A stretch of 64,000 bases of DNA from assembly GCF_030013595.1 (NCBI RefSeq), contig NZ_CP122768.1, one strand, 5' to 3'. Below, in pieces: positions 3,002-58,239 of this stretch. Origin of the DNA: Escherichia coli. GTDB taxonomy: Bacteria > Pseudomonadota > Gammaproteobacteria > Enterobacterales > Enterobacteriaceae. Under the pieces are notes generated by a model. That model was not told the DNA's origin. It saw only the letters and a program-made list of their open reading frames with translations, and did no database searches. Numbering within the stretch: the first letter of the stretch is position 1; every line of letters begins with the position of its first letter. The translations under genes were made by a program, and so were the position numbers.

Positions 3002-3433
3002 TTAACGGGTGCGCGGGCACACTTCGCCTTCGCCGAAGAAATAAGCGATTTCGCGAGCGGCAGATTCGACGGAATCAGAACCGTGGGTACCATTTTCGGT
3101 CAGGCTGTCAGCGTAATCAGCACGCAGAGTACCGGCCAGTGCGTTTGCCGGATTGGTCGCGCCCAGCAGATCGCGGTGACGCTGAACAGCATTTTCACCT
3201 TCCAGCACGGAAACCACGATCGGGCCAGAAGTCATGAATTCAACCAGGCCATCAAAGAACGGTTTTCCATCGTGTTCAGCATAAAAGCCACGAGCCTGTT
3301 CAACGGTCAGGTGCAGCATTTTGGTGCCGACAATTTTGAACCCTGCAGCTTCAAAGCGCGCAAAGATACTACCAATCACGTTTTTTGCTACCGCGTTCGG
3401 TTTGATGATGGAAAAAGTACGTTCAATAGCCAT
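3002..3433 (-). CDS. ndk: nucleoside diphosphate kinase
   Basis: ORF track 143 aa [15 protein letters not shown]...; canonical NDK sequence. Confidence 0.95.
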
Positions 3434-3581: not shown

Positions 3582-5894
3582 CTATTGCATGACAAATTTC
3601 ACTGTCGCGATTTGCCCCACCTCATCCATCACCAGCAATTGATAATCGCCTTTATCCATCAAATGCAGGGTCACGTTGTGCCCGCGTTCAGTTAACGGTT
3701 CGCCATTCAGAAACCACCAGCGTTCACCTGCCCCTCCACTTGATTGCAACGGCAAAGTCGCTTCCGCTGCGCCCGGTAAACGTTTAATAATCGCGCCATC
3801 GCGAACACCTGTCAGCTGCAGTGGGAGTTGTGCATCGTGACCGTATGGCGGGCAAATTGTCGAGGCCGGTGGTAAGCGCACAGCGCGGCGTTCTGATGCG
3901 GGCAACCAGGGTTCCAGCGGTAGCGGCCAGACATTTATCATTTCTTGTCGCGCCTGAGGGCAATCAGCGGCAACACGTTTACCGTTTTCATCCAGCCAGA
4001 TGGGGAAACGAATGCCATTAATGCCTTCCTGCTCCGGCAGTAATAGAGTTGGCGGCTGACTCCCGTCCAGCAGCCAGGTTGCCAGGCGGCGGCGACAGTT
4101 ACCGTCACCTTCCGGCAAAGACTGTCCGCCTGGCCAGCAGATAACGCCACGAGTGACTGAGTTCGGGCGCGGGTCTTCCGGCAGATTCGCACTGCGCGAC
4201 AGTAAGATATTATTGACCTGATTCAACAATGGTACGGCACTGGCAAAGCCAAACTGACCAACAACGGGCGTGCCGTCCGGTCTGCCAGTCCAGATCCCAA
4301 TAACATAGCGAGCGTTAACCCCAATCGCCCAGGCATCACGATAGCCATAGCTGGTGCCCGTTTTCCATGCCAGTGGGGCAACGCGCGGCAAGGCACCATC
4401 CGGCAAGGGTTGCGCTTCATCAGCCATAATCCGGCGAATGATCCACGCAGCCCCCGACGACATTAAAGGCCGTTCAAGCAGCGGATCGTCAGGCTGTAAG
4501 CGCAATTTACCTGCCTTGCCGTGGCGAGCAAACGCGGTATAGGCCGCCGCCATATCCCCCAGTTTTGCACCAGCGCCGCCGAGAATGAGCGAAAGATTCG
4601 GTGCAGCACCGTTGGGCAAATATAACGGCAATCCAACATTGCGTAACTTTGCAGCAAACCGTTTCGGCCCATAGGCTTCCAGCACCTGCACAGCTGGTAA
4701 ATTCAGCGAGCGCACCAGCGCCTCGCTCATGCTGATCGGGCCATGAAAACCGCTATCAAAGTTACCTGGTCGATAATCACCGGTGCGCCGGGGGACGTCT
4801 TGCAGCAGTGATGCCGGGTGGATCAATCCTTCATCCAGCGCCAGAGCGTAAACAAACGGTTTGAGCACCGATCCTGGCGATCGGATCGCATTGACCATAT
4901 CAACATGACCAAAGCGTGAATCATCGTTGAGATCAACCGAACCCACCCAGCCGCGAACACGCATATCGGTATGATCAACCACGATCATCGCCAGTGAGCT
5001 GCGCGGTGGTAATCGTCCTTTCCAGTTTTGCGCCAGTTCTTCCAGACGTCGTTGAAGACCGGCATCCAGCGTCGTAACGATTTTGTCGCTTTTGCTTTTA
5101 CCGAGCATCATGCGCGAAAACAGCGGTGCCAGTTGCGGCATTTGTCGGGGTGCCAGCCAGATGGGTTCTTCCCTTGACTCTTTTACCTGCTCACGGGACC
5201 ACACACCTTGCGCAGCCATCCGTTCGAGCACTTTATTACGCGCGGCTTCGGCACGCTCCGGCCAACGATCCGGGCGAAGACGGCTGGGCGCTTGCGGTAA
5301 CACCGCCAGCATTGCCGCCTCGGAATAGCTCAAATTTGCAGGCGACTTCCCGAGATAAGCCCAGCTTGCCGCACCGATCCCCTGTAACGTACCGCCAAAC
5401 GGGGCGCGGTCAAGATACAAGGTCAGAATTTCACGCTTAGACAGATGCCACTCCAGTTGCAACGCGCGCCAGAGCTGGCGAATTTTGCCGCCAAATGTTT
5501 TGGGGTGAGGATCAAGCAAACGAGCAACCTGCATAGTGAGCGTGCTGCCACCGGAAATAACCCTTCCCGAAGTGAGATCTTGCCATGCTGCGCGCGCCAC
5601 CGAGAATGGATTCACCCCCGGATGCTTCCAGAACCAGCGATCTTCATAATTGATCAGCGCTTCAAGGTAACGTGGAGAAACATCTTCGATTGTTACCGGA
5701 TAACGCCAGATGCCTTCCGCATCGGCAAAGCGCCAGAGCGGCGTCCCATCCTGCGCCACAACCACTCGTGCGGGATTGACTTCATGCAGCGGTAGAGGCC
5801 AGAGTTTATCTGCTCCCCACGCTGCAAGAAAAAGGAGAAATGGCGCAGCTGCCAGCGTTATCCAGCAGCCGCGTTTGGTTAACAAGCGAGGCAT
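3582..5894 (-). CDS. pbpC: penicillin-binding protein 1C (peptidoglycan glycosyltransferase)
   Basis: ORF track 770 aa; start codon immediately follows yfhM stop (TAA-ATG adjacency at 5892-5897). Confidence 0.92.
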   Translation of the reverse strand: MPRLLTKRGCWITLAAAPFLLFLAAWGADKLWPLPLHEVNPARVVVAQDGTPLWRFADAEGIWRYPVTIEDVSPRYLEALINYEDRWFWKHPGVNPFSVARAAWQDLTSGRVISGGSTLTMQVARLLDPHPKTFGGKIRQLWRALQLEWHLSKREILTLYLDRAPFGGTLQGIGAASWAYLGKSPANLSYSEAAMLAVLPQAPSRLRPDRWPERAEAARNKVLERMAAQGVWSREQVKESREEPIWLAPRQMPQLAPLFSRMMLGKSKSDKIVTTLDAGLQRRLEELAQNWKGRLPPRSSLAMIVVDHTDMRVRGWVGSVDLNDDSRFGHVDMVNAIRSPGSVLKPFVYALALDEGLIHPASLLQDVPRRTGDYRPGNFDSGFHGPISMSEALVRSLNLPAVQVLEAYGPKRFAAKLRNVGLPLYLPNGAAPNLSLILGGAGAKLGDMAAAYTAFARHGKAGKLRLQPDDPLLERPLMSSGAAWIIRRIMADEAQPLPDGALPRVAPLAWKTGTSYGYRDAWAIGVNARYVIGIWTGRPDGTPVVGQFGFASAVPLLNQVNNILLSRSANLPEDPRPNSVTRGVICWPGGQSLPEGDGNCRRRLATWLLDGSQPPTLLLPEQEGINGIRFPIWLDENGKRVAADCPQARQEMINVWPLPLEPWLPASERRAVRLPPASTICPPYGHDAQLPLQLTGVRDGAIIKRLPGAAEATLPLQSSGGAGERWWFLNGEPLTERGHNVTLHLMDKGDYQLLVMDEVGQIATVKFVMQ

Positions 5895-11062: not shown

Positions 11063-11908
11063 ATGTCCACGACATGGTTTGTAGGAGCCGACTGGCTCGC
11101 CGAACATATTGATGACCCGGAAATTCAGATTATCGATGCCCGCATGGCGTCGCCTGGACAGGAAGATCGTAACGTTGCTCAGGAGTATCTGAATGGACAT
11201 ATTCCCGGCGCAGTGTTTTTTGATATCGAAGCGCTTTCTGATCACACTTCCCCGCTTCCGCACATGCTGCCGCGCCCGGAAACGTTCGCCGTGGCGATGC
11301 GTGAGTTAGGCGTTAACCAGGATAAGCACCTGATTGTCTATGACGAAGGTAATCTTTTCTCAGCCCCACGAGCATGGTGGATGCTGCGCACCTTTGGTGT
11401 AGAGAAAGTGTCGATTCTGGGGGGTGGACTTGCAGGCTGGCAGCGCGATGATCTGCTGTTAGAAGAAGGTGCAGTAGAGCTGCCGGAAGGAGAGTTTAAC
11501 GCCACGTTTAATCCTGAAGCCGTGGTGAAAGTCACCGATGTGTTATTGGCAAGCCATGAAAATACGGCGCAAATTATTGATGCCCGCCCGGCTGCACGTT
11601 TTAACGCAGAAGTTGATGAACCTCGCCCAGGTTTACGTCGCGGACATATTCCCGGCGCGTTTAACGTTCCGTGGACAGAACTGGTACGTGAAGGCGAACT
11701 AAAAACGACCGATGAACTGGATGCGATATTTTTTGGTCGCGGCGTAAGTTATGACAAACCTATTATCGTCAGTTGCGGTTCTGGTGTAACGGCAGCCGTG
11801 GTTTTGTTGGCACTCGCGACGCTGGATGTGCCAAACGTGAAACTGTACGACGGCGCATGGAGTGAATGGGGCGCACGGGCAGATTTACCGGTTGAGCCAT
11901 TGAAATAA
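11063..11908 (+). CDS. sseA: 3-mercaptopyruvate sulfurtransferase
   Basis: ORF track frame 10904..11908; start trimmed to MSTTWFVGADW (281 aa); rhodanese active-site CGSGVTA. Confidence 0.9.
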   Translation: MSTTWFVGADWLAEHIDDPEIQIIDARMASPGQEDRNVAQEYLNGHIPGAVFFDIEALSDHTSPLPHMLPRPETFAVAMRELGVNQDKHLIVYDEGNLFSAPRAWWMLRTFGVEKVSILGGGLAGWQRDDLLLEEGAVELPEGEFNATFNPEAVVKVTDVLLASHENTAQIIDARPAARFNAEVDEPRPGLRRGHIPGAFNVPWTELVREGELKTTDELDAIFFGRGVSYDKPIIVSCGSGVTAAVVLLALATLDVPNVKLYDGAWSEWGARADLPVEPLK

Positions 11909-11924
11909 GCTTTTTACAGGCAAT

Positions 11925-11953
11925 AAAAAACCGCCGAATTTGGCGGTTTTTTA
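11925..11953 (+). terminator. rho-independent terminator downstream of sseA
   Basis: Hairpin ccgccgaa/ttTggcgg followed by T-tract (aaaaaaccgccgaatttggcggttttttatt). Confidence 0.7.
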
Positions 11954-12099
11954 TTGCTGGTCTGGTTCGCGGCCTTTCCAGCAGGTTGACTTGTGTTGTC
12001 GGAGCAACGCAGGTGCTTCACAGCAAAGCAATACTCGCCAGTAACTCTCTTTTTGTCAAGCGAAAGAGAGTAATCATTGTTTATTTAGCGTATTATCGA

Positions 12100-12405
12100 C
12101 ACCGGCCCTTTCCGCCGTCTCGCAAACGGGCGCTGGCTTAAGGAAAGGATGTTCCATGGCCGTAAATGCAGGTGTTTCACAGCGCTTGCTATCGCGGCAA
12201 TATCGCCAGTGGTGCTGTCGTGATGCGGTCTTCGCATGGACCGCACAATGAAGATACGGTGCTTTTGTATCGTACTTATTGTTTCTGGTGCGCTGTTAAG
12301 CGAGGTAAATAATAACCGGAGTCTCTCCGGTAACAATTTACTGGTGGTTAACAAACTTCAGAGCAGCAAGTAAGCCCGAATGCCGCCCTTTGGGGCGGCA
12401 TATTT
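12100..12405 (+). ncRNA. ryfA: ryfA-type small RNA / timP mRNA, copy 1 (5' end not determined)
   Basis: Location between sseA and sseB where RyfA maps in E. coli; ends at hairpin gccgccc-tttg-gggcggc plus atatttt; contains small hydrophobic ORF. Confidence 0.45.
12236..12373 (+). CDS. timP: small hydrophobic protein, TimP-like type I toxin candidate (MDRTMKIRCFCIVLIVSGALLSEVNNNRSLSGNNLLVVNKLQSSK; may start at second Met)
   Basis: Own translation; ORF below the 60-aa track cutoff; hydrophobic TM-like core IRCFCIVLIVSGALL; position inside ryfA. Confidence 0.5.
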   Translation: MDRTMKIRCFCIVLIVSGALLSEVNNNRSLSGNNLLVVNKLQSSK

Positions 12406-12488
12406 TAGATTATCCGATGCTGTTTAAAGTCACGCAAAAAACCACCCCAGCGACGTTCATAGAATGGCGCAATATGTTCGGTAATAAA
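12395..12488 (-). pseudogene. duplicated 3'-terminal fragment of sseB (~30 codons) carried in repeat unit A
   Basis: Sequence ttagattatccgatgctgtttaaagtcacgcaaaaaaccaccccagcgacgttcatagaatggcgcaatatgttcggtaataaa is identical to the 3' end of sseB at 13083-13166. Confidence 0.8.
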
Positions 12489-12779
12489 ATAACCTAGCTT
12501 ATTAGTCCGAATTCAGACAAATATAAACAATTTTCGCTTAATATTAAAAATACTAACCAATAAAAGATATTACTTGAACATGTAATTTCACTTTCTTTAA
12601 ACAACAAAAAACCGCCAAAATCAGGCGGTTATTTGTTGCTGGTCTGGTTCGCGGCCTTTCCAGCAGATTGTATTACCGTAGTAATGCAAGCGCGTCTCAG
12701 CGGACACAATACTCGCCAGTAACTCTCTTTTTGTCAAGTAAAAGAGAGTTATTATTGTTCTGTTAGTGTATTATCCACT

Positions 12780-13085
12780 GCGGACCTTTCCGCCGTCTCG
12801 CAAGCGGGCGCTGGCTTAAGGAAAGGATGTTCCGCGACCGTTAGAGCAAGCGCGTCTCAGCGCTTGCTATCGCGGCAATATCGCCAGTGGTGCTGTCGTG
12901 ATGCGGTCTTCGCATGGACCGCACAATGAAGATACGGTGCTTTTGTATCGTACTTATTGTTTCTGGTGCGCTGTTAAGCGAGGTAAATAATAACCGGAGT
13001 CTCTCCGGTAACAATTTACTGGTGGTTAACAAACTTCAGAGCAGCAAGTAAGCCCGAATGCCGCCCTTTGGGGCGGCATATTTTA
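12780..13085 (+). ncRNA. ryfA: ryfA-type small RNA / timP mRNA, copy 2 (5' end not determined)
   Basis: Duplicate of copy 1; terminator hairpin 13060-13077 and T-tract overlap the sseB stop codon. Confidence 0.45.
12914..13051 (+). CDS. timP: small hydrophobic protein, TimP-like type I toxin candidate, copy 2 (identical 45-aa translation)
   Basis: Own translation of atggaccgcacaatgaagatacggtgcttttgtatcgta...agcagcaagtaa. Confidence 0.5.
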   Translation: MDRTMKIRCFCIVLIVSGALLSEVNNNRSLSGNNLLVVNKLQSSK

Positions 13086-13859
13086 GATTATCCGATGCTG
13101 TTTAAAGTCACGCAAAAAACCACCCCAGCGACGTTCATAGAATGGCGCAATATGTTCGGTAATAAAGTGGCTAATTCCTTTTTCCCCTTTTTTCACCTGA
13201 CAAATATCGATGGGTTCATCGCCAGGTAATGTATCGGTCGCTACACTTCCTGCCGCCTGAATAATTTCTTCGATATCACCATCGGCTTCAATGCCAATAA
13301 GTAAATTAGGCTGTGCCTCTTCGTTCTCTTTAATTGAACAAATAAAAGCACGCTTCACCGGCTTAATAGTTTTAAATAAGGTGGTGAGTGAATCAATCAT
13401 TTGTGCTGGTGGCTCTGCAACTTCCGATAATATCAGCGATTCACCGCCTTCCAGTACTTCCTGGCTGCTCAGCGGATTTCCTTCTTCACCAATCAGCAAA
13501 CTGATTTCACGCGGCATAAATTCTTTACCGGTTGGCAGTTTGGCATTAAGGAAGAGCGTTTCGCCAAGGGTCATCTCAAACAATGTGCGAACGGGCATTA
13601 CGACAAATGCCTGTTCGTCTTCAACCGCCTGTTGAAGTGCTTCTAACGAGGTGAAAAAAGGAATGACGCTGGTGCCGTCTTCTTTTTCCCAGTGCTGTAA
13701 ATCAAGCGCGCTATCTTCAACCACAGCCTCGCCCTTCGCCGCCGTACCAGGCACCCAGACGGTGGATTCCAGTAGCGTACGGAAAAAGGCCGGGCGGTGC
13801 GCCGGTTCGGTTGCTGCTTTTTCCAGCAGATCTTCAAGTTCGTTTTTTGTTTCGGACAT
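13083..13859 (-). CDS. sseB: SseB family protein (enhances serine sensitivity)
   Basis: ORF track 13083..13868; start trimmed to MSETKNELEDLL (258 aa). Confidence 0.9.
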   Translation of the reverse strand: MSETKNELEDLLEKAATEPAHRPAFFRTLLESTVWVPGTAAKGEAVVEDSALDLQHWEKEDGTSVIPFFTSLEALQQAVEDEQAFVVMPVRTLFEMTLGETLFLNAKLPTGKEFMPREISLLIGEEGNPLSSQEVLEGGESLILSEVAEPPAQMIDSLTTLFKTIKPVKRAFICSIKENEEAQPNLLIGIEADGDIEEIIQAAGSVATDTLPGDEPIDICQVKKGEKGISHFITEHIAPFYERRWGGFLRDFKQHRII

Positions 13860-20315: not shown

Positions 20316-20426
20316 TGCTCTATAAACTCCGTACATCACTCAATGCAAGGAACCAGGCTACCGGCTGGATGTACGACCGTGTTTACGGAGCGCGATACGC
20401 CCCGGCCTGATTCTGAATTCTTTTTA

Positions 20427-35210: not shown

Positions 35211-35585
<375 letters not shown>

Positions 35586-35947
35586 TTATGAGAATAAATA
35601 CTCATTTAAGAGTGAAAACATTTTGCCTGCAAATGATTATCAGGAAATATAACATTATCGAAGTATTCAAATTAACAACTATTAAATAATATTAAACATT
35701 TTTAACGTAAACATTAAGAATATTCATCTTGTTATCTGTCTGTATTTTAAACAGAATTAAATCAGTATTAGATGCCGTATGAATATCTCGAAATGTTGCT
35801 GTGTATCACATACAAATCATCACCGCAGGACCATAGTATTTACATAAGGTTTGTCCCCCGGAGGTAGTCATCGCAGCAATCGAGTAAATTAGCTTCACCA
35901 CGGTATATTGTTTCCGTAGAATACCCATAATTATAAGAGAGGTTGTT

Positions 35948-50724: not shown

Positions 50725-50741
50725 TTCATTCTTAACTCTCA

Positions 50742-50775
50742 CGCTTACCCTGAATATTCAGGGTAAGCGGTTTTC
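50742..50775 (+). terminator. rho-independent terminator downstream of maeB
   Basis: Hairpin cgcttaccctgaa-tatt-cagggtaagcg followed by gttttcc. Confidence 0.7.
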
Positions 50776-50779
50776 CTGA

Positions 50780-51016
50780 AATATATTAGTAAAGCTTATT
50801 ACTGAGTTTACGAATAATAAAAAAAGCAGTATATGAAATATCTCGATATTATTTTATTTATATTCATGCGTCGCATATGAAAGTTTATTCATAACAGTAA
50901 ATATCTCTCCATTCTTAGTGATCTACCTCACCTTTTAAACGCGCTTGCCGAATTTTGTTATTTACTCTGACGAAAAATTGTCACGATACACGAAAGTTTT
51001 TCACAGGCGGCGACTC
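50780..51016 (+). promoter_or_regulatory. AT-rich upstream region of the eut operon (expected main eut promoter)
   Basis: AT-rich 240 bp directly upstream of eutS; no specific boxes called. Confidence 0.35.
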
Positions 51017-56910: not shown

Positions 56911-58239
56911 CTGATGAATCCCCTAATGATTTTGGTAAAAATCATTAAGTTAAGGTGGATACACATCTTGTCATATGATCAAATGGTTTCGCGAAAAATC
57001 AATAATCAGACAACAAGATGTGCGAACTCGATATTTTACACGACTCTCTTTACCAATTCTGCCCCGAATTACACTTAAAACGACTCAACAGCTTAACGTT
57101 GGCTTGCCACGCATTACTTGACTGTAAAACTCTCACTCTTACCGAACTTGGCCGTAACCTGCCAACCAAAGCGAGAACAAAACATAACATCAAACGAATC
57201 GACCGATTGTTAGGTAATCGTCACCTCCACAAAGAGCGACTCGCTGTATACCGTTGGCATGCTAGCTTTATCTGTTCGGGCAATACGATGCCCATTGTAC
57301 TTGTTGACTGGTCTGATATTCGTGAGCAAAAACGACTTATGGTATTGCGAGCTTCAGTCGCACTACACGGTCGTTCTGTTACTCTTTATGAGAAAGCGTT
57401 CCCGCTTTCAGAGCAATGTTCAAAGAAAGCTCATGACCAATTTCTAGCCGACCTTGCGAGCATTCTACCGAGTAACACCACACCGCTCATTGTCAGTGAT
57501 GCTGGCTTTAAAGTGCCATGGTATAAATCCGTTGAGAAGCTGGGTTGGTACTGGTTAAGTCGAGTAAGAGGAAAAGTACAATATGCAGACCTAGGAGCGG
57601 AAAACTGGAAACCTATCAGCAACTTACATGATATGTCATCTAGTCACTCAAAGACTTTAGGCTATAAGAGGCTGACTAAAAGCAATCCAATCTCATGCCA
57701 AATTCTATTGTATAAATCTCGCTCTAAAGGCCGAAAAAATCAGCGCTCGACACGGACTCATTGTCACCACCCGTCACCTAAAATCTACTCAGCGTCGGCA
57801 AAGGAGCCATGGGTTCTAGCAACTAACTTACCTGTTGAAATTCGAACACCCAAACAACTTGTTAATATCTATTCGAAGCGAATGCAGATTGAAGAAACCT
57901 TCCGAGACTTGAAAAGTCCTGCCTACGGACTAGGCCTACGCCATAGCCGAACGAGCAGCTCAGAGCGTTTTGATATCATGCTGCTAATCGCCCTGATGCT
58001 TCAACTAACATGTTGGCTTGCGGGCGTTCATGCTCAGAAACAAGGTTGGGACAAGCACTTCCAGGCTAACACAGTCAGAAATCGAAACGTACTCTCAACA
58101 GTTCGCTTAGGCATGGAAGTTTTGCGGCATTCTGGCTACACAATAACAAGGGAAGACTTACTCGTGGCTGCAACCCTACTAGCTCAAAATTTATTCACAC
58201 ATGGTTACGCTTTGGGGAAATTATGAGGGGATCTCTCAG
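56911..58239 (+). mobile_element. IS10 (complete, 1329 bp) inserted in eutJ, flanked by 9-bp target duplication GGCGTAGTG
   Basis: Outside end CTGATGAATCCCCTAATGATTTTGGTAAAAATCATTAAG at 56911; inside end ...GGGGATCTCTCAG at 58239; direct repeat ggcgtagtg at 56902-56910 and 58240-58248. Confidence 0.95.
57018..58226 (+). CDS. IS10 transposase (402 aa)
   Basis: ORF track MCELDILHDSLYQFCPELHLKRLNSLTLACHALLDCK..., recognised as IS10/Tn10 transposase. Confidence 0.95.
   Translation: MCELDILHDSLYQFCPELHLKRLNSLTLACHALLDCKTLTLTELGRNLPTKARTKHNIKRIDRLLGNRHLHKERLAVYRWHASFICSGNTMPIVLVDWSDIREQKRLMVLRASVALHGRSVTLYEKAFPLSEQCSKKAHDQFLADLASILPSNTTPLIVSDAGFKVPWYKSVEKLGWYWLSRVRGKVQYADLGAENWKPISNLHDMSSSHSKTLGYKRLTKSNPISCQILLYKSRSKGRKNQRSTRTHCHHPSPKIYSASAKEPWVLATNLPVEIRTPKQLVNIYSKRMQIEETFRDLKSPAYGLGLRHSRTSSSERFDIMLLIALMLQLTCWLAGVHAQKQGWDKHFQANTVRNRNVLSTVRLGMEVLRHSGYTITREDLLVAATLLAQNLFTHGYALGKL

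Follow-up and report, generated by a model that had tools for sequence, protein, structure and literature searches.

Between sseA and sseB, the window analysed here, i.e. the whole 64,000-nucleotide (nt) stretch of the Escherichia coli contig NZ_CP122768.1 (assembly GCF_030013595.1), carries two tandem ryfA repeat units joined by a 116-bp AT-rich spacer at 12489-12604, and the locus raises the question of what this spacer is and how it came to lie there. The spacer is embedded in the known type I toxin-antitoxin module ryfA/timP-TimR (RyfA1/2-RyfB1/2); there, ryfA serves as mRNA for TimP, a small toxic membrane protein, and is repressed by the divergently encoded small RNA (sRNA) TimR (PMC7667032). 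A preliminary description of the window, made from its letters, had proposed that the spacer may be a remnant of the event that created the duplication or a promoter for the second ryfA copy. Our analysis supports the first proposal in substance, the spacer being present in every multi-unit locus that was read and in relic loci, and absent from true single-unit loci. The spacer is probably the junction of the first timR-timP duplication, arisen once, passively carried since and mostly functionless; we draw this reading from a left junction that is the same throughout, from the tie between spacer and multi-unit or relic loci, and from the copying of the spacer together with the unit in a three-unit strain.

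Distribution and structural classes of the spacer

BLAST placed the spacer in 2241 of 5426 complete E. coli genomes (2248 places, all chromosomal), and all of the copies that were read lay between sseA and sseB; the ryfA core occurred in 5425 genomes, at 5602 places. About 41% of E. coli genomes have either a second unit or its relic. The following structural classes were defined from about 25 loci read in detail together with junction-specific 60-70-nt BLAST queries.

Class A: single unit, without the spacer; about 3185 genomes
Class B/C: two or three full units, with a common junction of sseB' (84 nt) and spacer; 157 genomes
Class D: K-12-like relic, first ryfA deleted, spacer kept; about 1690 genomes (2241 - 157 - 395)
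Class E: first terminator and a third type of timR, followed by ~56 nt and by the spacer, which starts at its position 7-9; 395 genomes

For Class D, the K-12 deletion-junction query itself counts 1839 genomes, a figure that includes some joined two-piece matches in Class B.

The left junction, at which the 84-nt relic of sseB (sseB') meets the spacer, was the same in all of the full-unit loci read (the window/L002, L003, L013, L017 and L032) and occurred twice in the three-unit locus of strain 19KM1831 (L006), where the spacer stood at both junctions and the two copies differed at about five positions. The spacer was not found in the true single-unit loci examined, namely those of E. coli ETEC4067, Escherichia whittamii, Escherichia sp. 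E1V33, three Citrobacter and Salmonella. It had been suggested that a spacer present identically in single-copy ryfA loci would be ordinary intergenic sequence; a spacer of 87-88% identity does occur in K-12 and in roughly 1700 other genomes with a single ryfA, but these loci are degenerate two-unit loci in which 357 bp of ryfA1 have been deleted. Among metagenome contigs, 12 matched a two-block spacer pattern, and all 12 represented this locus; the scan of genome contigs used an overly strict ryfA core pattern, returned only 6 loci and left out E. albertii, E. fergusonii and Shigella.

Several of the loci showed peculiarities of their own. The array of E. coli 19KM1831 (L006, 1526-3468) holds three units with three different timR types; the target of its third ryfA matches the timR of the first unit, while no target in the array matches the third timR, a pattern which suggests that target regions may have been shuffled by gene conversion. 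The insertion sequence IS1 lies inside the right end of one spacer, after its position 97 (L019, 1413-2110), and an IS200/IS605 tnpA lies between sseA and the relic unit of another locus (L015, 607-1065). In the K-12-like locus of E. coli P276M (L005, 1484-2142), the spacer allele shows 21-30% divergence from the others, ryfA breaks off after ~167 nt and is replaced by ~135 bp of unrelated sequence, and sseB is annotated as frameshifted. The single unit of E. whittamii (L010) has a 'type 2' timR/ryfA pair directly after sseA, and a ~170-bp insert at about 3258-3429, between the ryfA terminator and the sseB stop, which we take to resemble an enterobacterial repetitive intergenic consensus/intergenic repeat unit (ERIC/IRU).

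Loci without the ryfA/timP module were also read (L037, L024, L040, L022, L038 and L039). In these, sseA and sseB stand 31 bp apart in Trabulsiella, 56 bp apart in Intestinirhabdus and 90 bp apart in one Citrobacter group, the last with sequence like a repetitive extragenic palindrome, while Enterobacter, Kluyvera and Superficieibacter have an RpiR-like gene between sseA and sseB instead of ryfA/timP. Because several genera lack the module, the module itself appears to be an insertion confined to some of the genera.

Anatomy of the array between sseA and sseB

The window is E. coli DNA with the gene order yfhM, sseA, repeats, sseB, pepB. The features of the array, including open reading frames (ORFs), are as follows.

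11063-11908, plus strand: sseA (3-mercaptopyruvate sulfurtransferase), an ORF also annotated in NZ_CM149870.1, a near-identical record; bounds the array on the left
11925-11955, both strands: terminator T1 (inverted repeat, 95%, and terminator scan), predicted to end sseA (plus) and the timR1-like sRNA (minus)
11921-12025, minus strand: timR1/ryfB1-like antitoxin sRNA gene of unit 1, its ends placed by homology with K-12 ECS011
12102-12406, plus strand: ryfA1 (timP1 mRNA; Rfam RF00126, 311 bits; timP annotated in NZ_CM149870.1), with the timP1 ORF at 12248-12373 and a terminator hairpin at 12380-12401 (terminator scan)
12405-12488, minus strand: sseB' relic, duplicating the final 84 nt of sseB; closes repeat unit 1 on the right
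12489-12604, no strand: the spacer, probable inter-unit junction DNA and core of Rfam RF00125 'IS128'
12610-12630, both strands (terminator scan): terminator T2, paralogue of T1, which opens unit 2 (84% to 11925-11988)
12600-12703, minus strand: timR2/ryfB2-like antitoxin sRNA gene of unit 2, homologue of K-12 ECS011/IS129
12780-13084, plus strand: ryfA2 (timP2 mRNA; Rfam RF00126, 310 bits; annotated in NZ_CM149870.1), with the timP2 ORF at 12926-13051 and a -10 box, TATTAT, at 12769-12774
13083-13859, minus strand: sseB, from ORF, annotation and Pfam SseB domains of homologues; bounds the array on the right

The two repeat units described as flanking the spacer are real (300 nt at 92%, 12029-12328 and 12707-13006, at a spacing of 678 nt). 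The repeat period of ~680 bp is made up of the spacer, the two-way terminator, timR (minus), ryfA/timP (plus) and the 84-nt relic of the sseB 3' end, and the spacer is missing only from the first unit, the one abutting sseA. The relic is identical to 13083-13166, and the annotation of NZ_CM149870.1 lists it as a pseudogene for a partial SseB. Global alignment showed the last 306 nt of the units to be identical (12183-12488 and 12861-13166) and their first ~275 nt to be only about 80-85% alike; the boundary is sharp and falls directly after the sRNA target site, which suggests that the toxin-coding half alone may recently have been gene-converted between the units.

An ungapped complementarity scan paired the unit 1 sRNA (12006-12024, minus strand) with ryfA1 at 12165-12183 over 19 nt (17 Watson-Crick and 2 G-U pairs), and the unit 2 sRNA (12686-12702, minus strand) with ryfA2 at 12846-12862 over 17 of 17 nt; cross-pairs between the units were weak. 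RNAduplex on the whole RNAs did not discriminate between the sRNA/target pairs. With strong pairing inside each unit and weak cross-pairs, each unit is, as far as its complementarity indicates, a self-contained toxin mRNA with its cognate sRNA.

The terminator-like hairpin which the preliminary description saw after the spacer is indeed a predicted terminator, although not a separate feature: unit 2 starts with it, and it is paralogous to the terminator of sseA. On the minus strand, AACCGCCTGATTTTGGCGGTT followed by the tail TTTTGTTGTT (12630-12600) was scored as the intrinsic terminator of timR2, with the G+C-rich hairpin and the U-run on the transcribed strand that characterise Rho-independent terminators; the predicted timR2 RNA (12715-12596, minus strand) folds with z = -3.0 and a terminal hairpin. 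The tail covers 12609-12600, and the spacer's share of the U-tract is only 12600-12604. We infer that this right edge, supplying part of the timR2 U-tract, is the only part of the spacer with a clear role. In K-12, the read sequence of ECS011 is the reverse complement of the timR2 region, with a northern signal of ~95-100 nt (PMC3175480).

Further observations concern neighbouring or distant features. In E. coli 1604D011 (L003, about 673-706), the left half of the sseA terminator is tandemly duplicated, a 17-nt sequence, AATAAAAAACCGCCGAA, occurring twice. Elsewhere in the window, an Rfam match to RNA-OUT, the IS10 antisense RNA (98.8 bits, 56956-57025, minus strand), indicates that an IS10-type element is probably present, and the iscRS stability element is matched at 20317-20426 (minus strand, 132 bits).

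Composition and alleles of the spacer

The 116-bp sequence was confirmed at 12489-12604, and its AT-richness was borne out, with a G+C content (GC) of 23.3% as against 47.6% in unit 1 (11909-12488), 49.4% in 12605-13082 and 52.9% in the whole window. Equally AT-rich 116-nt windows number 146 of 63,885 in the 64 kb and cluster in three places; apart from the spacer, 116-nt windows of at most 30% GC occur only at about 35523-35825 and 50739-50947 (minimum 18%, at 35645), both of which fall within, or border on, gaps that separate long ORFs. The truly unique part of the spacer is about 12489-12590.

Most spacer copies are 80-90% identical to the allele in the window, and an allele at least 99% identical occurs in only 3 genomes. 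Alleles were compared as 13 allele rows from 12 loci, and the most conserved part is the following.

12506-12524, no strand: spacer block TCCGAATTC(A/G)GACAAATAT, holding the near-palindrome TCCGAATTCAGA

This block is identical in 13 of the 13 rows, P276M included, save for the one A/G position. A second block, 12561-12572, is likewise unchanged even in the P276M allele. The statement that the spacer has no ORF needs one correction, as a 37-codon ORF with a TTG start exists on the minus strand (12494-12607), yet it is not kept among the alleles: 1-nt indels interrupt it in those of K-12, L006b and L014-L016. Because of these one-base indels there is no conserved reading frame, and coding is ruled out.

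Identity with Rfam RF00125 and the K-12 'IS128' prediction

The preliminary description missed that the spacer is an ordinary, already catalogued sequence, namely Rfam RF00125 ('IS128 RNA', K-12 'IS128'). The match is full-length (12438-12648, plus strand, model positions 1-209 of 209) and scores 212.2 bits against a gathering score of 80, and it lies where the family is expected, in the sseA-sseB intergenic region upstream of ryfA. No 5' promoter for it was found in the window, where 12438-12488 is sseB' relic right after the ryfA1 terminator and holds no plus-strand promoter-like site; nor was a conserved RNA structure found (fold z = -0.35; 0 compensatory pairs in 13 alleles). By score and place the spacer belongs to RF00125, as judged on sequence, without the promoter and conserved structure of a real RNA gene.

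The K-12 locus accounts for the shape of the model. There, the first terminator, timR1 and the ryfA1 promoter with 18 nt of ryfA1 are followed by a 357-bp deletion, after which come 11 nt of the sseB' relic, the spacer (87-88% identical) and a complete second unit. The K-12 counterpart of the spacer lies at about 2,653,563-2,653,679 of U00096.3. This layout explains why the RF00125 model covers promoter remnant, spacer and terminator, and the published coordinates fit it, with IS128 starting at the orphan ryfA1 promoter, crossing the spacer and stopping at the second terminator, and with ryfA following ECS011/IS129 (PMC3175480). In that study IS128 yielded 0 reads and no signal from a strand-specific northern probe inside the spacer, ECS011 being detected at ~95-100 nt, and its authors considered IS128 an artefact or a case of condition-specific expression (PMC3175480). 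Overexpression of IS128 gave no phenotype in the listed columns of a screen (PMC4606813). IS128 is patchy across strains, which was interpreted as repeated secondary loss (PMC3318445) and fits collapse of the array by recombination between units.

Proposed formation of the junction

In the account that we favour, the 116 bp form the junction between the units of an array in which timR-timP (ryfB-ryfA) modules, of the type I toxin-antitoxin kind, are repeated in tandem between sseA and sseB. This junction would have arisen once, by the joining of an end 84 nt inside sseB to a point that precedes the sseA/timR terminator by ~15 nt, with an AT-rich stretch of ~100 nt, its source untraced, between the joined ends. 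Unequal crossing-over between units may then copy the spacer, giving three units with two spacers, or remove it by collapse to one unit, and internal deletions of the first ryfA may leave it behind, which would be the K-12 state; the orphan ryfA1 promoter, spacer and next terminator of K-12 would be what was once predicted as the sRNA gene 'IS128'. The last 5-10 nt of the spacer would, from sequence and fold, be part of the U-tract of the timR2 terminator, and the rest would be unconstrained filler separating the ryfA1 terminator from the timR2 end.

Several points weigh against this account. The donor of the ~100 unique nt was not found, so that 'filler' is a description and the mechanism is not demonstrated, and a GC of 23% is below what plain decay of local DNA suggests. 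The blocks 12506-12524 and 12561-12572 are unchanged even in the 21-30% diverged P276M allele; this could reflect constraint or mosaic recombination, P276M being the one such diverged allele. 'Arose once' and 'about neutral' are conclusions from about 25 loci and BLAST counts, with no phylogeny, and the comparison of mean pairwise divergence (0.099 in the spacer vs 0.068 at four-fold degenerate sites of the adjacent sseB) is a small one, of 108 spacer sites with 82-84 four-fold sites. Finally, one RNA-seq study lists IS128 as differentially expressed, down in transition and stationary phase after exponential growth (PMC4676190).

Source of the spacer sequence

The 'unknown origin' of the preliminary description still stands, no source having been found in the window, E. 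coli genomes, plasmids, phages or the loci of other genera. Its claim that the spacer has no counterpart in either unit holds insofar as local alignment, judged against dinucleotide shuffles, gave no above-chance match to ryfA, to the ryfA 3' end with sseB', or to the upstream part of the unit; it fails for the last ~14 nt (12591-12604), which align with the 15 nt after the sseA stop (76%, repeat family D3). Resemblances noted by eye to further sseB sequence (a shared GACAAATAT) and to the ryfA 3' end plus sseB' (AGTCCGAAT vs AGCCCGAAT) were not borne out: Smith-Waterman scores against dinucleotide shuffles were not significant at the syntenic position for the former, and local alignment was at chance for the latter. 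Nor was a decayed sseA 3' end borne out, local tests being at chance and the anchored signal being due to the last 15 nt only.

A related explanation, which we regard as doubtful, is that the spacer is old local DNA, consisting of a decayed copy of the sseA 3' end plus the DNA separating sseA from the terminator, of the kind that Salmonella still has (about 95 nt between sseA stop and timR terminator), so that the duplicated segment would have begun in or after sseA. When the last 41 nt were anchored against unit 1, the similarity was reached by 14-20 of 3000 shuffles for two alleles, a significance due to the last 15 nt only, as extension into sseA was reached by 31 to >2000 of 3000 shuffles depending on the pair, and local tests against the E. 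coli sseA end were at chance. An nhmmer profile of the 13 allele rows found nothing elsewhere in the window, and nothing with E < 1 in the sseA-sseB loci of Citrobacter, Salmonella, Enterobacter, Kosakonia, Intestinirhabdus, Trabulsiella, Kluyvera and Superficieibacter except one 4.3-bit match in Salmonella; this lies on the right strand between sseA stop and timR terminator and was reached by 1 of 2000 shuffles. Pairwise Smith-Waterman scores against the Salmonella spacer were reached by 4-64 of 1000 shuffles according to allele (4-8 of 1000 for two), and the motifs TAAATTC...TTTAAGCA, seen by eye, are shared by the spacer with Salmonella and Citrobacter. Against this, the Salmonella match is tiny, was noticed post hoc and varies with the alignment method, the left 60-70 nt of the spacer are without any match, and no such spacer follows sseA in single-unit Escherichia and Citrobacter. 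An origin from old local DNA is possible, but unproven.

Tests for a function of the spacer

The spacer may alternatively have a function of its own, as the plus-strand IS128 sRNA, as a minus-strand promoter (its RNA antisense to the ryfA1 3' end or, in K-12, 'C0614') or as a protein-binding site at TCCGAATTCRGA, which on balance we think unlikely. The RF00125 match (212 bits), the two conserved blocks and the down-regulation listed in PMC4676190 are in keeping with a function, as is a promoter-like site whose -10 box falls inside the first block.

12520-12547, minus strand: promoter-like site TTAATA, 16 nt, TATATT; consensus match only

K-12 C0614, on the minus strand just downstream of this site, has a few reads (PMC3175480 supplement). 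The promoter scan found no plus-strand promoter-like site in the spacer, however, and the 4 sites found in the 1.5-kb region vs 2.3 expected are not above chance; on the plus strand the window is also closed upstream by the ryfA1 terminator. Neither strand of the spacer folded better than shuffles (z = -0.35, plus; -1.13, minus), and RNAalifold on the 13 alleles gave 0 compensatory pairs and a covariation term of +0.3, with only the terminator hairpin well formed. The absence of reads, probe signal and overexpression phenotype for IS128 (PMC3175480, PMC4606813) also speaks against an RNA, and about 59% of E. coli genomes lack the spacer altogether. With its divergence at or above the synonymous rate, the spacer overall gives no sign of purifying selection at the sequence level.

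One specific form of this explanation is that the two blocks, 12506-12524 with the near-palindrome TCCGAATTCRGA and the minus-strand TATATT, and 12561-12572, constitute a minus-strand promoter/operator driving an RNA antisense to the 3' end of ryfA1/timP1. We hold this to be distinctly improbable; if true, it would add a second RNA layer controlling the toxin array, and its K-12 version would be the little-known 'C0614' transcript running into timR1.

Improbable readings: a foreign insertion or a ryfA2 promoter

It is quite improbable, in our estimation, that a larger piece of foreign DNA (mobile element, islet or phage scar) once separated two units and was later lost by deletion except for the spacer. 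The spacer's very low GC for the genome, the lack of a local source and the attraction of the locus for insertions (the IS1 in a spacer and the IS200/IS605 tnpA noted above) are compatible with such an event, but BLAST gave no match in 50,697 phage records, none in 72,556 plasmid records save one mislabelled chromosome, and no place beyond one per genome (two in multi-unit arrays) across the 5426 E. coli genomes. No repeat family other than D3 was found in or flanking the spacer and no inverted repeat at its ends, and none of the loci read in detail had a larger insert at its position. A mobile or miniature inverted-repeat element was rejected on the same grounds, the spacer being confined to one place per genome (two in arrays), always chromosomal and without terminal inverted repeats.

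The other proposal of the preliminary description, that the spacer is a promoter for ryfA2, can be dismissed as extremely improbable, and so can an upstream activating region: the spacer lies upstream of ryfA2 and is AT-rich like UP elements, but the ryfA2 start (12780) and -10 box (12769-12774) are inside unit 2 and are exactly matched in unit 1 (12102 and 12091-12096), the spacer ends 175 nt upstream of the start, beyond the oppositely transcribed timR2 and the two-way terminator, it has no plus-strand promoter-like site, and an identical ryfA promoter sequence is present in single-unit strains, which lack the spacer.

Comparison with known systems

The spacer is of little consequence for biology at large. 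The link between 'IS128' and the duplication junction is one small new point, along with the better match of the K-12 ryfA to the distal timR1. For annotation, the K-12 'sRNA gene' IS128 would be the point where tandem ryfA/timP copies were joined, read from a ryfA1 promoter that has been orphaned, and its block-wise presence or absence across E. coli would be explained by collapse of units or retention of relics. The sole ryfA of K-12 (L001) carries a unit-1 type target and pairs best with the distal relic timR1, not with the adjacent timR2 (ECS011/IS129), a mismatch of sRNA and target that bears on the design of timR deletion experiments in E. coli.

The spacer and the IS128 RNA share sequence family, place between sseA and ryfA, and 3' end at the hairpin 12610-12630. 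They differ at the 5' end, which in K-12 is the orphan ryfA1 promoter with 18 nt of ryfA1 after the 357-bp deletion, whereas in the window ryfA1 is intact with its own terminator and the first ~51 positions of the model fall on sseB' relic as poor matches with no promoter ahead. That IS128 is expressed at all is doubtful (PMC3175480).

Other type I toxin-antitoxin loci of E. coli have also been multiplied in tandem, including the LDR repeats of ldr/rdl, ibs/sib, and zorO-orzO/zorP-orzP. These resemble the present array in combining a toxin mRNA with an antisense-type sRNA, in a copy number that varies between strains and in pairing that is specific to the unit.

The closest counterparts are the ryfA systems themselves. 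Both ryfA1/2-ryfB1/2 of Shigella dysenteriae (PMC5333039) and timP/TimR of Salmonella (Andresen et al. 2020, PMC7667032) have a divergent ~100-nt sRNA before ryfA, with 16-19 nt complementary to the ryfA 5' region; the searched passages of the two papers contain no inter-unit sequence and no link to IS128. Salmonella differs from the window in having one unit and no spacer. In S. dysenteriae, ryfA1 and ryfA2 stand in tandem, each preceded by a divergent transcript of ~100 nt, ryfB1 and ryfB2 (Fris et al. 2017, PMC5333039). The two units of the window follow this arrangement, with ryfA genes of ~300 nt in tandem, and the spacer is the DNA between them.

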